From the NCBI GenBank assembly GCA_000004985.1, contig GG738873.1: 64,000 bases of DNA; one strand, written 5' to 3'. A program made the translations under genes and the position numbers. Shown here one piece after another: positions 47,139-52,999 of this stretch; positions within the stretch are counted from its first letter, which is position 1, and every line of letters begins with the position of its first letter. This DNA comes from Naegleria gruberi (lineage: Eukaryota). Under the pieces are notes generated by a model. That model was not told where the DNA came from. It worked only from the letters and a program-made list of their open reading frames with translations, and ran no database searches.

Positions 47139-48254
47139 ATGAGGGTTCATTCTAATTTCATCTATTTCGTCATCATATTTTTTCTTAGTTCATTATTAAG
47201 GAGCTCCAAACTGTCATTAGTCGATTGCCAAGTGACACCCAACAAAAATTTTGTTAAAGCAATTGATGTTGCCACTGCCATCTATACTCGTTCTGATGAA
47301 TGGAGAAGAACATTGGAGGATTATAAAATCATATTCAAAGCACCCGAATGTTCATTGACTGCAAAGGATTTCCCATCCAATTTAAATTTTTCAAGAGATT
47401 ATATGACAGTTTGTGGAGAAGTTGAGGCAGTATATCCCTGGAAACATATTCATCATGTTTCGGGTGAGCTACTTGTAAAAACAATCAGGGAACAATATAA
47501 ACTTCCCAAACTGGATATGGTATTCCTTAATATCAACACGAGTGAGGGTTATTTCTATTCACTGAGAAGAGCTGTCGATTCAGGTAAGTAATTCTCATTA
47601 TCAGAAACAACAAGCATATCTTTCCTATCAAAGGATACTGTGATGTGGTAGTGGCTTCAACAAATTGGGATTCAGAAAGAGCCAAGGCAGTTCACTTCCA
47701 ATGTAAGTTAATATAATTGTTAATTCCTCTAATTTCAATAGGTGCATACGCCAGTTCATATTTTGGATTTGTTCGTTCTGAGTTAGATCCACAAATCAAT
47801 GTAAGAAATGATACTGAAATGGACCGTGCAGGCTTCAACGTTTCTGTCTCAATAGGAACAATAACAGACAAGTGGGCCACAAACAATCTCAAAAAAGCAA
47901 ATATTATCAGGCTTAGTGGATATGAGGAAGCCTTTCAAATGATCCTGCAGAAACAAACGCACACCTTCATTGCTGATTCTCTCGATTTGTTTTTGTGGTT
48001 ATCCCAAAACAAGAACAATTGCTCCACGTGCTATGGTAAGTCTATTCAAGTACAAAACTATATTAATATTATTAAATTAATAATTAATGGTTAAATTATT
48101 AAAATTAGTAAGAGCTTTCGGAGTGAATTTTCCAATCGGTTCCTTCGTATCCAATAATCTAGTTGATACATCATCTGCCTCAACAAATCAGACAAGTATT
48201 TTCCTTCCTCTCTTTCATGTCTTGATCTACATCACTCTCATCATTTGCTTTTAA
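47139..48254 (+). CDS. Secreted PBP-II (SBP_bac_3-like) protein, copy 2 (tandem paralogue); 4 exons: 47139-47583, 47634-47702, 47742-48035, 48109-48254
   Basis: Exon 1 and its 5' flank are near-identical to copy 1, and all four intron positions are the same. Exon 4 (the C-terminal tail) has diverged. Confidence 0.6.
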
Positions 48255-48400
48255 ATCATTTTTTTAATTGAAAAGCAAAAACATTAAATTCTTCCATGTA
48301 AAAAATTGAATGAATTGTCCTTATATGTAATCATTATTACATAGATTAAGCTCTCTTCTTAATAGAATCATGATAATTGAATTTGGATTTAGTTTAAAAA

Positions 48401-49651
48401 ATGGAAAAACAAGCATTTGTGAATGTGCAAGCAAATTCACTCGAATTTCTTGCTAAATATTTGGAGGAAAACAGACAAACTCCAATGGATCATGTAATTA
48501 TTAATAATGAATTATATTCAATTATAGCATCGGGAGGAAATAGAGGGTGCACCATTTACAAAACAACTAATTTTGAAAGCAGCACCAAATGGCAATCCAC
48601 CTTGATCGGAGAATTTGAATTAATTAAAGAGAATCAATCTGATGATGATTTATCCCAAATGTATTGCCTCTCTATTGATAGGAATATTTATATAATTACC
48701 ATCTCTAATAATTCAATGAGTCGTATTCATCGAATTTCTATTCAAAAGTCTGATGAAGAGGAAAATTATGTGGAAACCTTGTTTGAGGATAGTGGTGGTG
48801 ATTTTATTGGAATTGATCCAGGGCTGATTGCAGATTCAAAGAGGAATTGTTTATATTTCATGTTTGGATTGACTGTGGCTGATTCGGCCAAGAAGAATAT
48901 TACCAGATTTGATATTAATACTGGATCTTTTTCTGTTATTGGTGAATTGGATAGGGAATTCTACTGTTTATCCTCAACATTTTGGAAAGATAGATATATA
49001 ATCTTAGTTGGAGGTCTAACAAATTTGACACCTTCATCAGATATTTTGGCTTTTGATGTTGAACAAGGAATTTGGAAGCAAATCTATAGAGCTAAATCAA
49101 TGCCAGTAATTTATCCACGATACATGTCAGGAATTACAATGGTTTCCAATAATTATGCATCTCAATTTCATCCTGAAATTCCAAAAGATTCCAATACTGA
49201 TACGATATTTATTTATGGTGGATTTTTGGATTATGAAGTGGAAGTTAGTGACCATTCAAGATTTTTCATTAGTAGACCCTCTCACGAAGTCATTCTCCAC
49301 TATTTGAAAGAAAGTGAATGGATCGATAATATGGAATCTGATTGTGAGAAGAGAATCCCAATCAGTTTGACTGATATTTGTACACCAGAAGATAGAAAAC
49401 TTGAGAAACTACACATAAGAAGAATAAAAAGTGGCATAGAGGATGACGATGCAGAAGACAGCAATGAATTCAAGATTTTACCCACTTGCACATTTTCCAC
49501 AATACTCCCTCTGAAAATTAGAGGAAGGCAGGAATTATTAATTTTCAGAAATACTGAACAAGTCTTAAAAATTCAATTATTCCACAATAATCCATTCCAC
49601 AGAGAGTCGATGAATAAGAACCCAGATGTCTCAATTCTTTTTTCAGAATGA
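48401..49651 (+). CDS. Kelch-repeat-like beta-propeller protein, hypothetical
   Basis: 416-aa ORF with Kelch-type blades (YIILVGGLTNLTPSSDILAFDVEQGIWKQI; TIFIYGGFLDYEVE). Single exon. Confidence 0.45.
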   Translation: MEKQAFVNVQANSLEFLAKYLEENRQTPMDHVIINNELYSIIASGGNRGCTIYKTTNFESSTKWQSTLIGEFELIKENQSDDDLSQMYCLSIDRNIYIITISNNSMSRIHRISIQKSDEEENYVETLFEDSGGDFIGIDPGLIADSKRNCLYFMFGLTVADSAKKNITRFDINTGSFSVIGELDREFYCLSSTFWKDRYIILVGGLTNLTPSSDILAFDVEQGIWKQIYRAKSMPVIYPRYMSGITMVSNNYASQFHPEIPKDSNTDTIFIYGGFLDYEVEVSDHSRFFISRPSHEVILHYLKESEWIDNMESDCEKRIPISLTDICTPEDRKLEKLHIRRIKSGIEDDDAEDSNEFKILPTCTFSTILPLKIRGRQELLIFRNTEQVLKIQLFHNNPFHRESMNKNPDVSILFSE

Positions 49652-49705
49652 ACATTGTACAACTTCCGTGTTGTAATGTTGGAACTAGGAAAAAGCCAAA
49701 AAAAA

Positions 49706-50719
49706 ATGTCTTTACATGATGATGATGAACCTGTTACACTTTTCCTAATTGATTTTAGATCGAGAACATTGAATTATTGTATTAATAATTGTGATTATGC
49801 CGATGCAGATGAAAATAACAACATTGCACTCATTCAACAAGAAATGGAATGGTTAAAGAAAAGCTTTAGAAAGCCAAAAACTTTATTTTCCTATCAATTC
49901 GAAAATCCTCCACGAATTTCCTTACCAGAAACTGAGCTCCGATTTGATGTTAAAATTTCATATAGATACGATTGTTTGATTGTTATTGCATCAGACATTT
50001 ATGTTTTTGATCGAAAGTCGAAATTATTGATCAATTCTTTTAAATTTGCAAATGTTGTGCTATCAACTTTGGATGATGAACATGATGAACTGTACGTCAT
50101 GATACCAGACCGAACAAATTACAAAGTTGAGAAGTATTCATTAGGACAATTTATCAGAAGCAAGGAGAAGGAGAAAGCACAACCAATTTGGTCAGTAACT
50201 GCATGCTCTAATCCGTATGGTGCTGTTGTGTTTAATGGTTTGGAGCACAGATATTTGATTATACTTGATAACTCCAGTGATGAAAGTAATTTGATAATAG
50301 TGGATTGTGAGGATGGATCCTTAATTGAAAACACAATTTTTACAGTTCCTCCGAATGGCTATTCGCTAGGAATGATCTCAAGGAAGGAAATAATTGTTGG
50401 GTGCTCAGATATTATTGGAATTTATGAAATTGATGAGAAATCATTTGGTGCCACAAGACAAGCTCTCAATTTGATAGTTTCTGCATCTATGAAGGACGCC
50501 ACAGAATTCTATTCAATTATTCATGACGAATTGAATCGAAAGATTATCCTTTCAAATGCTGATAGTAACTCAATTACAGTTATGAGGAGAGACAATTTAG
50601 AAACAGTACAAACCCATAATTGTGAGGGCTCTGTACGGGGTGTTTCAGGATTGTGTTTGGATGAATATACGGGAGAGCTTTATGTATGCTTTTCAAATGG
50701 ATTGTTAATATACAAGTAG
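49706..50719 (+). CDS. Hypothetical protein
   Basis: The track ORF starting at 49655 most likely begins at the A-run-preceded ATG 49706 (MSLHDDDEPV). This is only 54 bp after the stop of the preceding gene. No domain recognised. Confidence 0.45.
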   Translation: MSLHDDDEPVTLFLIDFRSRTLNYCINNCDYADADENNNIALIQQEMEWLKKSFRKPKTLFSYQFENPPRISLPETELRFDVKISYRYDCLIVIASDIYVFDRKSKLLINSFKFANVVLSTLDDEHDELYVMIPDRTNYKVEKYSLGQFIRSKEKEKAQPIWSVTACSNPYGAVVFNGLEHRYLIILDNSSDESNLIIVDCEDGSLIENTIFTVPPNGYSLGMISRKEIIVGCSDIIGIYEIDEKSFGATRQALNLIVSASMKDATEFYSIIHDELNRKIILSNADSNSITVMRRDNLETVQTHNCEGSVRGVSGLCLDEYTGELYVCFSNGLLIYK

Positions 50720-51162
50720 ATCAAGTTAAACCCCTTATATCTGATAATCTTTGTTTCTACATTTCCAAAATAACCTCTCCTGCATTTCTCTTTCAAATTG
50801 TTTGGGTTTCCTATTGCCATGCAAGAGACAAGGAGAAATGAACGTATTTTTCGAATTATGATCTAATTATTACAGAAAGGACATTCCATTAATTTGGCAT
50901 GAGCTGAAGAAGATGGTAAACTCTATTGTTTCATATTATTTGAATTTCGCCTCTCAGGTTGATAACGACTCCTGTTGCTGACTTTCCGATAGATGGACGC
51001 CATTTTAAAGATATTTCGAATTTGATTGATACAATCAGTTCTAGTTCGCATACTTGAGTTTACTAAGATTACAACAATTATAAAACAACAAAGGAACACA
51101 GACACTGCCTGTAGCACATCAGAAGCATGATTGATTCTCTGAGACAACATTAATAATTAGGT

Positions 51163-51411
51163 TTATGGCAAACCAGGCCAATCCTCTACATATTGGATCT
51201 TAAAATCTGGCCAATCTTCAACAATTTGAATCTTATAATCAGGCCAATCTTCAACAATTTGCCACTTTCCAACACTATCTGGCCAATCATCAACTTGTTT
51301 AACCTTGAGATCTGGCCAATCTTCAACAATTTGAACTTTGTAATCTGGCCAATCTTCTACGAATTTGATTTTGCCATAGATTTGGGCAATTTGATCTTTG
51401 GAAATGGTCAT
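51163..51411 (-). CDS. Small protein built from about 6 tandem 11-residue repeats, K[IV]Q[IV]VEDWPD[YFL]
   Basis: The 82-aa ORF reads MTISKDQIAQIYGKIKFVEDWPDYKVQIVEDWPDLKVKQVDDWPDSVGKWQIVEDWPDYKIQIVEDWPDFKIQYVEDWPGLP. It is encoded by a 33-bp tandem repeat (…ctggccaatcttcaacaatttgaa(t/c)tt(a/g)taat… on the plus strand). Strand and coding status are inferred from the ORF and the preserved amino-acid periodicity. Confidence 0.35.
   Translation of the reverse strand: MTISKDQIAQIYGKIKFVEDWPDYKVQIVEDWPDLKVKQVDDWPDSVGKWQIVEDWPDYKIQIVEDWPDFKIQYVEDWPGLP
51180..51385. repeat. 33-bp tandem repeat, about 6 units
   Basis: The unit 'aatctggccaatcttcaacaatttgaatcttat' recurs with few substitutions. It is not CRISPR-like: there are no unique spacers. 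Confidence 0.8.
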
Positions 51412-51529
51412 GATATTGATTGTGAAATTTGATCAGAGCTAAAAGCGAATGGAAATGTTATCAAGTGAACGACCTTCCACAATTTTTTTTAAGTAATTTA
51501 TTTGGAGAAATGTTTTCTGATTCAATTGT

Positions 51530-52077
51530 TTACAATGAATTTATTTTTAAAACTACCCGTGCCTGAACAATACGCCCTTGAATTGTGTATGGAAATAATC
51601 TGTCGTATCTGTTTGGAATTTTGTAAAAATCAACAACTTCCTTATCAATTTCTATTTTGGATTCATCTTCGAGTAATTCTATTGCTGATGGTCTCTTATC
51701 AACTTCCTCTTCGAGCATTAAAGGAAGAACTCTTTTGATGGTTTCATTTTCAATTTCAAGTTCGTTCAAGCATTGAACTACATTCGAATGATTTTCTAAA
51801 TTTCTTACTCGTTTTCTAGATAAAACTTCCAACATTACTAATCCTAATGAGTAAATGTCACTTTCCGGAGATTCAACAATTCTGGTTGTCATTAAATAGA
51901 TAAAAAGACTACAGCACCACAGGTTCCCAAGTTGTCTCCAACCTCAGTACTGATGTGGCTCGACGATGCTTAACTTCTCAAATCGGACGGGATGAGGTGC
52001 ATTCATCGTGATATGGCCGTAGCCATTCATAATCTTAAATTAAGGTTTATTTATCGTTTTTCAGCTTTGTGTAGACA
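51530..52077 (-). pseudogene. Protein-kinase remnant: intact C-lobe ORF (51530-51892) behind a frameshifted, decayed activation-segment region
   Basis: ORF 51530..51892 encodes only kinase subdomains VIII-XI (TTRIVESPESDIYSLGLVMLEVLS...KRPSAIELLED). Upstream, in another frame, is a degenerate DFG-like 'EVGDNLGTC' ending at a stop. The N-lobe would have to overlap the same-strand 14-3-3 gene, which starts 185 bp upstream, so the gene is truncated. Confidence 0.45.
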
Positions 52078-52999
52078 CTAATCATCATCTGGTCCAATTT
52101 CAGTTTCACTCGACCACAAAAATAAATTATCCTTCAACAATTGTAGTATCAGTACAGCATCCCTTTCATCACCATATTCATCTTGCTTTTCCAATAATTC
52201 CTCAATGTGTGTCATGGCTAGATCGAATTCTGGACGTGCAATACTAATTGCCTTTCCAACATCAAACATTATGTCAGAATAAAAATATGAATAGTTTAGA
52301 ATAAGCCCCAATCTAATAGAATTCGTGCAAGGTAAGAGATTGATCAGCTCATATGATTTTTCATAACTTTCCAAAGCTTTAGCTTTCCAATCTGAAATTC
52401 TAAATCTATAATCCACATTGTAAATATATTTGAAAAAATCTCCTTTAACTTTCCAATAAAAAACAGAATCCACCAATGACAAACTTTCCACCTTCAAAAC
52501 TTGATCAATAATCTCATTAATTTCATAACAATAGTGCTCTGTTTTTTCCTGAATTTCTTTCACAAATCTTTCACACAACCCAACTTGCCAATCTTCTCCC
52601 TTATTCTCATGTCTACTCTGCACATTCACAACACTTCTAAAAGCCTTACTATAATCATATAATACATTTTTATAGGCAACCACTAATAGAGATCGTTCCT
52701 CAATTGTGGGAATGGGTTCATGAACCGATTGAATAATTATTTCCAAGATTAAACTCTTCATTTCCGAAACCATATCTTGATCATCAATATCATCAAATAT
52801 ATCAATTATTATTATCATCATCAATTATTATTAATAATAATAATTAATAGCAATGATGATGAATTATTATTATATTGGATGTTTAAATATCATCAAACTC
52901 ACCTTCATAACGACCTGCTTGTTCACATAATTTTGCATTGAATAATTTCTCATTCCGAGAGGCAATGAAAGGTTGTTGTAATGATGGTGATAAAGACAT
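52078..52999 (-). CDS. 14-3-3 protein (divergent); 2 exons: 52999-52903, 52775-52078
   Basis: Exon 1 reads MSLSPSLQQPFIASRNEKLFNAKLCEQAGRYE and exon 2 reads DMVSEMKSL...EERSLLVVAYKNV...FYWKVKGDFFKY...NSIRLGLILNYSYFYSDIMF...LLKDNLFLWSSE. This rebuilds the 14-3-3 signature AKLAEQAERYDDM...EERNLLSVAYKN...RLGLALNFSVFYYEI...LRDNLTLWTS across a 127-nt GTGAGT..CAAG intron. Confidence 0.8.

Follow-up and report, generated by a model that had tools for sequence, protein, structure and literature searches.

Within a 64,000-nucleotide stretch of the Naegleria gruberi genome (NCBI GenBank assembly GCA_000004985.1, contig GG738873.1; hereafter the window), a 33-bp tandem repeat fills an open reading frame (ORF) on the minus strand at 51163-51411. 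The product of this ORF is a full-length member of the Pfam PF19647 “Septknot” family, in one member of which the most complex protein knot to date has been solved. The explanation that best accounts for the repeat, and which we hold with considerable confidence, is an unannotated, leaderless Septknot gene in the N. gruberi nuclear genome that is probably bacterial in origin and has been kept under selection.

The 33-bp repeat encodes a Septknot domain

The ORF runs for 82 codons from ATG to TAA, the stop codon being included in the coordinates 51163..51411, and encodes a protein of ~9.9 kDa with a pI of 4.2 and seven Trp residues: MTISKDQIAQIYGKIKFVEDWPDYKVQIVEDWPDLKVKQVDDWPDSVGKWQIVEDWPDYKIQIVEDWPDFKIQYVEDWPGLP. 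It contains six 11-residue units with the consensus K-x-Q-x-V-E-D-W-P-D-x. An earlier reading of the DNA made without database searches (the sequence-only reading) had described an open minus-strand frame with six such periodic units, and this description is borne out by the ORF, by the coordinates of the units (given below) and by Tandem Repeats Finder, which reports a period-33 array at 51176-51368 (5.6 copies, 72% matches). The score of this array, 162, is the highest in the 64-kb window.

Searches of a 5.8-billion-protein collection with phmmer returned 18 matches of ~107-128 amino acids (E=2e-26 to 1e-13, 47-68% identity), and all 18 carry a precomputed PF19647 assignment; “Septknot” is the name given to this domain, formerly a domain of unknown function, in the contig look-up. 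An exhaustive HMMER search of 1.84 billion representative sequences gave 1,086 representatives at E<=1e-3, of which 548 reach E<=1e-10, with no identity exceeding 68%, and a profile search found at least 2,780 family clusters at 90% identity. The PHROGs family phrog_6462 (function unknown) also matches the query, at E=6.6e-22. The sole significant sequence match in the PDB is UU089.1/Q9PR55 (8iwa and related entries), with E=1e-6 for the single sequence and E=2.9e-16 when a 107-member profile, the query included, is compared with 8iwa. The statement of the sequence-only reading that the motif matches no recognised repeat family therefore does not hold. A local hmmscan against Pfam reported no PF19647 domain for the query, but it also reported none for six of six proteins with the precomputed assignment, and we discarded this result as an artefact of the library or its filter. 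Scans of the query against NCBIfam and PADLOC gave nothing meaningful.

The correspondence with the family extends over the whole layout of the protein. Alignment with bacterial members matches the six units column by column, together with the irregular PDxxGxW junction that follows unit 3 and the xPG at the end. The PDSVGKWQ junction and the terminal WPG stand at identical places in bacterial homologues of many phyla, so the six-unit layout does not stem from a recent tandem expansion. G48 does not vary in either family alignment, nor does W50 among the 19 closest sequences. The published hallmark of the family is an SFPD tetrapeptide in every inter-strand loop (PMC10840475). The Naegleria protein has an aromatic-Pro-Asp motif in the same role, DWPD in five loops and a terminal DWPG, and DWPD is the Trp variant of the hallmark. 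Phe, Tyr and Trp are all present at the loop aromatic position of bacterial members: among the first 168 sequences Phe occurs 770 times and Trp 23 times, which makes Trp a minority state, and Trp loops are seen in the Bacteroidales-type proteins P0028, P0030 and P0206, and mixed Tyr/Trp loops in Pseudomonas-like proteins. The family falls into two subtypes, a Cys-type (C...PDxCGxW), whose examined members have a signal peptide, and a Cys-free type (DVSKIYGK...PDSxGKWQIV) with a leader or none. The Naegleria protein is of the Cys-free subtype, with Trp in place of all six loop Phe residues.

A tandem array of this kind might also be a non-coding satellite or the product of a recent DNA-level tandem expansion, or the coding strand might be the plus strand, on which a 79-codon ORF (the WPIFNNLN frame) is open as well; the period-33 array is what such readings would have in their favour. 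Homology has already refuted them: thousands of homologues with the same six-unit architecture match the minus frame, as the sequence-only reading had assumed for the coding strand, and the plus-strand frame is without support. Comparison of the six units with one another shows differences that are mostly synonymous or conservative (proportion of synonymous differences pS=0.59, of nonsynonymous differences pN=0.20, ratio 0.35), in line with the conservative substitutions noted earlier and not with neutrally evolving units, and synonymous sites are close to saturation. Units of a satellite would evolve blind to the reading frame and vary in copy number and boundaries; here neither the number of units nor the irregular junction changes across the family. 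The nucleotide identity between units is 73%, and back-translation of the peptide with the codon usage of the neighbouring genes leads to an expectation of 71 ± 1.7% (P=0.07), so that the periodicity of the DNA is a by-product of the repeated peptide; it is the peptide rather than the DNA that is conserved, as had been proposed. No further copy of the 33-bp unit was found elsewhere in the 64-kb window. The repeat in the DNA is the imprint of a short gene that codes for protein rather than a satellite or the result of a recent expansion, and we give the alternatives virtually no chance. Recent gene conversion among the units was considered and rejected, the fraction of identical codons (0.67, with 0.56 expected) not being significantly raised (P=0.07).

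Predicted fold and comparison with known members

A structure prediction for the 82-aa peptide, which the sequence-only reading had suggested as a check, gave five AlphaFold2 (AF2) models with a predicted local distance difference test score (pLDDT) between 85.8 and 92.4. The protein is predicted with high confidence to adopt the fold of Q9PR55, a small twisted antiparallel β-barrel on which the model can be superposed, with six strands and an aromatic-Pro-Asp turn after each. Naegleria residues 14-72 align with residues 26-86 of the Q9PR55 chain, which spans the published knotted core (27-83).

Each repeat unit would correspond to one strand and the turn that follows it (strand residues as E in the AF2 models; all coordinates on the minus strand). 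Unit 1 (KIKFVEDWPDY, 51340..51372) is predicted to form strand β-1 and the first DWPD turn (E13-17), unit 2 (KVQIVEDWPDL, 51307..51339) strand β-2 and its DWPD turn (E24-28), and unit 3 (KVKQVDDWPDS, 51274..51306) strand β-3 and its DWPD turn (E35-39). A two-codon insertion encoding VG (51268..51273) separates units 3 and 4 and yields the family-wide irregular junction PDSVGKWQ. Unit 4 (KWQIVEDWPDY, 51235..51267) and unit 5 (KIQIVEDWPDF, 51202..51234) would provide strands β-4 (E49-52) and β-5 (E59-63), each with a DWPD turn, and unit 6 (KIQYVEDWPGL, 51169..51201) strand β-6 (E70-74) and the terminal WPG, which is equivalent to the terminal FPG of the family.

The solved structures of Q9PR55/UU089.1 (PDB codes 8iwa, 8iwb, 8iwc, 8jrm and 8w68) show a monomeric twisted antiparallel β-barrel with a 7_1 knot (J Biol Chem 2023, PMC10840475). 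The protein withstands 7.2 M urea without change and strongly resists ClpXP, and the side chains of its loop Phe residues point outward (PMC10840475). By analogy, a deep torus knot is likely in the Naegleria protein as well. The knots predicted within the family vary, with 5_1 for P73136 of Synechocystis (an AlphaFold prediction) and 7_1 for Q9PR55 (PMC9278004): since published members differ, the type of knot is not fixed by homology alone.

Several features set the Naegleria protein apart from Q9PR55, to which it is 29-35% identical. Q9PR55 comes from a mollicute (Ureaplasma) and has five Phe loops in a pseudo-fivefold arrangement, the third of which, SSFCEE, is degenerate, whereas the Naegleria protein comes from a eukaryote and has six regular loops, all with Trp, and thus one extra C-terminal strand and turn. 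It is closer to bacterial six-loop members such as P73136, which likewise have six units, the irregular PDxxGxW junction and the terminal xPG, and its identity to members from Verrucomicrobiales, Rhodothermales, Flavobacterium and Pseudomonas is 60-68%. The Naegleria protein, however, has neither the N-terminal signal peptide of most bacterial members nor the conserved Cys pair found in many of them; its loops read DWPD instead of the S/H/N-FPD of bacterial six-loop members, and it is strongly acidic.

Two groups of bacterial proteins each share one of these unusual traits. Forms of 79-84 aa from Flavobacterium, Spirochaetales and Verrucomicrobia (on contigs L023, L047, L060, L082, L056 and L054) are leaderless and of the same length as the Naegleria protein, and their N-termini are alike, as in MTKDQISKVYGKIKFV from Flavobacterium sp. 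HTF and MTISKDQIAQIYGKIKFV from Naegleria. These forms come from low-GC genomes (29-34%), have Phe loops and are 56-65% identical to the Naegleria protein, but they do not emerge as nearest to it when the Trp columns are masked, so that they are only possible donors. The Trp-type bacterial proteins P0028, P0030, P0034 and P0206 (from Bacteroidales and others) have xWPD in all or nearly all loops and are 57-65% identical to the Naegleria protein; unlike it, they have a signal peptide and are of the Cys-type (PDxCGKW), and their grouping with it in a neighbour-joining (NJ) tree is driven by the Trp columns themselves.

Other members of the family gave some further observations. The loop residues are uniform within a protein and variable between proteins (HFPD x6, SFPD x6, NFPD x6, NWPD x6 and DWPD x6 all occur): in an alignment of 94 proteins, taken from loci L009-L088 and the P-numbered hits, the residue preceding the loop aromatic is identical in 82% of comparisons between repeats of one protein and in 47% of those between proteins. 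This could reflect either symmetric co-variation of the loop crown or concerted evolution. Many bacterial proteins (P0026 and P0176-P0199, ~200 aa) have two tandem Septknot domains and would potentially be double-knotted if both fold. P0070, a 186-aa protein of the representative library, opens with MGCASSQ, a start reminiscent of the N-myristoylation/palmitoylation signals of eukaryotes, and has a Cys-free Septknot domain at its end. It is a possible further eukaryotic member; no contig carrying it was retrieved. The gene for P0033 lies on three contigs of 26-27% GC (L006-L008: Logan SRR14751587, Logan SRR14751619 and ENA ERZ27272062) on which the caller had read TAA as Gln, giving a protein of 127 aa. 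A ciliate source for these contigs is unsupported: the standard code gives a normal 82-aa, leaderless, Flavobacterium-like form that ends right after the domain.

Genomic setting and origin of the Naegleria gene

The translations of five ORFs in the window that start with ATG are identical to the N. gruberi NEG-M proteins EFC43446, EFC43449, EFC43452, EFC43518 and EFC43519, encoded on a 461,873-bp scaffold. The 82-aa sequence is not in the protein collection and no gene call for it is on record, and the gene is thus not in the reference annotation. Its GC content is 36.5% and its GC at third codon positions (GC3) is 29%, which compares with a GC3 of 27-32% for its neighbours and with a GC of 65% and a GC3 of 90% for the closest bacterial gene examined. 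The 118-bp spacer between the ATG and the next ORF upstream (51412..51529, minus strand) presumably holds the 5' untranslated region and the promoter. An in-frame TGA lies at -24 and no AG occurs between it and the ATG, so no upstream exon, for example one encoding a signal peptide, could be spliced onto the frame.

The locus is present a second time on a 3,589-bp metagenome contig of a second, N. gruberi-like isolate (ENA ERZ929261; L106), which is 97.05% identical and syntenic to 48116-51738 of the window, with a Kelch gene, an EFC43453 homologue, the 82-aa ORF and the kinase fragment. The ORF on this contig is intact and differs by one synonymous change and one K16Q change, without indels; Gln is the residue that most bacterial homologues have at this position. 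In the adjacent 443-bp intergenic stretch the two sequences differ by 7 substitutions and 51 indel columns, and in the 118-bp spacer by one substitution and no indels. The pattern in the ORF is consistent with constraint. The gene is linked to host genes, as a gene transferred into the nuclear genome should be, and the linkage is reproduced in an independent assembly.

A more distant copy, P0038, lies at 1183-1779 on a 4,242-bp contig of 38% GC (ENA ERZ27315067 k141_1107272; L002). It is a leaderless Trp-type form that reads MTPDVSKIFGKIQIVEDWPDYKVQVVDNWPDLKVQKVDQWPDSIGKWQIVEDWPDFKIEFVDHWPQG.... The contig is eukaryotic, as the neighbours of this copy show: a GCV_H gene and a Strumpellin gene that is broken up into three ORFs. 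The genomic context differs from that in Naegleria. The two genes are 83% identical in DNA sequence over 173 nt, and comparison of 58 codons gave pS=0.40, pN=0.125 and dN/dS=0.24 (ratio of nonsynonymous to synonymous substitution rates). The copy has five WP loops and no stop after the domain, its frame continuing for ~130 codons antisense towards the GCV_H gene. A possible GTAAAC splice donor follows ...HWPQ, and a spliced, a fused or a decaying gene are all conceivable.

With one genome per species (the GTDB representatives), 402 of 185,579 bacterial and archaeal species carry a relative. The best of these matches, at 59-67% identity, come from Verrucomicrobiales/Akkermansiaceae, Pirellulaceae/Planctomycetota, Holophagaceae, Rhodothermales, Flavobacterium, the Pseudomonas fluorescens group and Bacteroidales. 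Named members of the >2,700 clusters are all bacterial. The only eukaryotic members found are those of N. gruberi and the L002 contig, eukaryotic genomes not having been searched systematically, and a scan of JGI metagenomes for more eukaryotic copies returned only Pseudomonas-like secreted forms with mixed Tyr/Trp loops. The Septknot family is overwhelmingly bacterial and patchily eukaryotic, which makes horizontal acquisition from a bacterium the most likely and most parsimonious origin of the Naegleria gene. As leaderless bacterial forms exist, loss of a signal peptide after the transfer need not be assumed. A route through phages or giant viruses was dropped, since viral carriage is rare and distant: there was no tblastn match in 50,697 GenBank phage records, and IMG/VR holds eight viral contigs (L107-L114) with relatives at 38-57% identity. 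The gene neighbourhoods of bacterial members (80 loci, 465 neighbouring ORFs) show synteny within lineages only and nothing common across phyla; the neighbours are aldolase-, radical-SAM- and dihydroorotase-like genes in Verrucomicrobiales, judged by sequence, and ABC-transporter genes in Pseudomonas.

The bacterial character of the family would suit contamination or a chimeric assembly, in which the ORF came from a co-sequenced bacterium. This has already been refuted by the independent, syntenic contig L106, which reproduces the junctions on both sides of the ORF and excludes both an assembly artefact and contamination. The ORF moreover lies 51 kb into the window on a 462-kb scaffold with N. 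gruberi genes on both sides, its GC3 equals that of its neighbours, and its eukaryotic flanks include an intron-bearing 14-3-3 gene, the kinase fragment and a 5S rRNA gene; we see next to no prospect that the ORF is a contaminant. We also weighed whether the gene is ancestral to eukaryotes and was lost many times, passed from eukaryotes to bacteria, was acquired independently, or moved between eukaryotes. The leaderless Trp-type form and the PDS[VI]GKWQIVEDWPD junction are common to the two eukaryotic lineages, the DNA of the two genes is 83% identical despite the lack of any close database relative of the L002 Strumpellin, and the tree does not place the eukaryotic copies. Against these stand the distribution (two eukaryotic lineages to 402 bacterial species and >2,700 clusters), the occurrence of both Trp-type and leaderless forms in bacteria, and the different genomic contexts of the two eukaryotic copies, which together leave such histories with a slim chance.

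A transferred bacterial gene might also be a neutral relic, unexpressed, slowly decaying and still open by chance. The gene is unannotated, its neighbours are the remnant of a truncated kinase and a dispersed 5S rRNA gene in a region that looks rearranged, and in the L002 copy the domain is not followed by a proper stop. Yet all family-invariant residues have been kept despite a divergence of at least 26-32% from any bacterial homologue, dN/dS relative to the L002 copy is 0.24, and the ORF is free of indels next to intergenic DNA with many. Although a single mutation would turn any of them into a stop, seven TGG codons are intact in an AT-rich genome, which on sequence grounds speaks for retention; codon usage is fully host-like, and AF2 folds the sequence at pLDDT 92. 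We therefore regard decay as unlikely and a leaderless gene of probable bacterial origin kept under selection as the better account. Some observations weigh against that account. With the Trp columns masked, identity hardly varies from one unrelated phylum to the next (68-74%); the NJ tree on 74 columns does not single out a donor, and only 5 of 60 bootstraps make Naegleria and L002 sisters. If the donor was a low-GC, Flavobacterium-like bacterium, host-like codon usage would carry little information about the time of residence. The two substitutions that separate the N. gruberi ORF from that of the second strain (L106) are too few alone for a statistical test, and the gene has no de novo gene call on public read assemblies, just as it has no reference annotation.

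The genes upstream of the Septknot gene lie on the same strand. A 120-codon ORF (51530-51892, minus strand) matches the Pkinase profile at positions 175-260 of 263 with 18.5 bits (Pfam cut-off 31.7), that is, in the C-lobe only, and the Septknot ORF begins exactly 118 bp downstream of its stop, as the sequence-only reading had it; the description of this ORF as a decayed kinase fragment was fair, and we would call it a truncated remnant. The 5S rRNA gene and the 14-3-3 gene directly upstream leave no room for a kinase N-lobe. The 5S rRNA gene (51906-52024, minus strand; Rfam RF00001, 105 bits, E=2e-23) is complete, is followed by a T-run, and is wedged between the stop of the 14-3-3 gene and the ATG of the kinase fragment, apparently as a dispersed 5S gene in a rearranged spot. 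The 14-3-3 gene (52078-52999, minus strand; Pfam E=3.5e-42) apparently has two exons: exon 1 at ~52903-52999 (MSLSPSLQQPFIASRNEKLFNAKLCEQAGRYE) ends in a GTGAGT donor, and exon 2 extends to the stop at 52078. On the plus strand, the open frame at 49655-50719 has 354 codons counted from a TTG; the annotated EFC43453 is 291 aa long and the call on L106 356 aa, and the reference gene model may be truncated.

Possible role and significance

The residues conserved throughout the family, namely the core Val, the Pro-Asp turn and the loop aromatic, are all structural and repeated, with the exceptions of G48 and W50, and no catalytic constellation is apparent among the conserved residues of the family alignments. 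With no candidate catalytic site, the protein would be a non-enzymatic, very stable binding or scaffold module, and its functional surface would be a ring in which six exposed Trp side chains have acidic residues beside them. We envisage that the gene entered the eukaryotic lineage from a bacterium by horizontal transfer, perhaps in a form already without a signal peptide, like the 81-84-aa Flavobacterium forms, and that purifying selection would have kept it thereafter. The protein may fold by itself into a deeply knotted mini-barrel that resists denaturants and the pull of AAA+ unfoldases/proteases, a tentative step that draws on analogy with Q9PR55, and it probably acts in the cytosol, as it has no signal peptide.

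The binding-module mechanism is a conjecture, and what weighs against it is that a function has been established for none of the family members and that gene neighbourhoods give no clue. Full-text searches of the literature turned up neither a report of the family in Naegleria nor any work characterising its function, and the two structural papers (PMC10840475, PMC9278004) describe only bacterial members. That Naegleria and at least one other microbial eukaryote have domesticated a bacterial Septknot gene as a cytosolic, deeply knotted (5-7+ crossings), all-Trp mini-protein has, in our estimation, nearly an even chance of being correct.

The family was already known, and the finding reveals no new kind of system. 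What is new is modest but concrete: an unannotated Septknot gene of the Trp variant, apparently under selection and most likely bacterial in origin, in the nuclear genome of a eukaryote. To Naegleria genomics it adds a small gene that had been missed and a clean candidate for transfer from a bacterium to an amoeba. The structural paper cites ~150 homologues (PMC10840475); the family is about ten times larger and includes secreted forms with a Cys pair as well as cytosolic ones. The study of knotted proteins gains a natural all-Trp, six-loop, leaderless eukaryotic variant of the 7_1-knot family, whose Trp loops bring their own fluorescence probe and allow the “aromatic linchpin” role that has been proposed to be tested. 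If the domestication is true, the Naegleria protein would provide the first case of this family, whose knot is the most complex known in proteins, at work in a eukaryotic cell; there, neither a periplasm nor disulfides would be available for its folding, and it would have to contend with the 26S proteasome instead of ClpXP.

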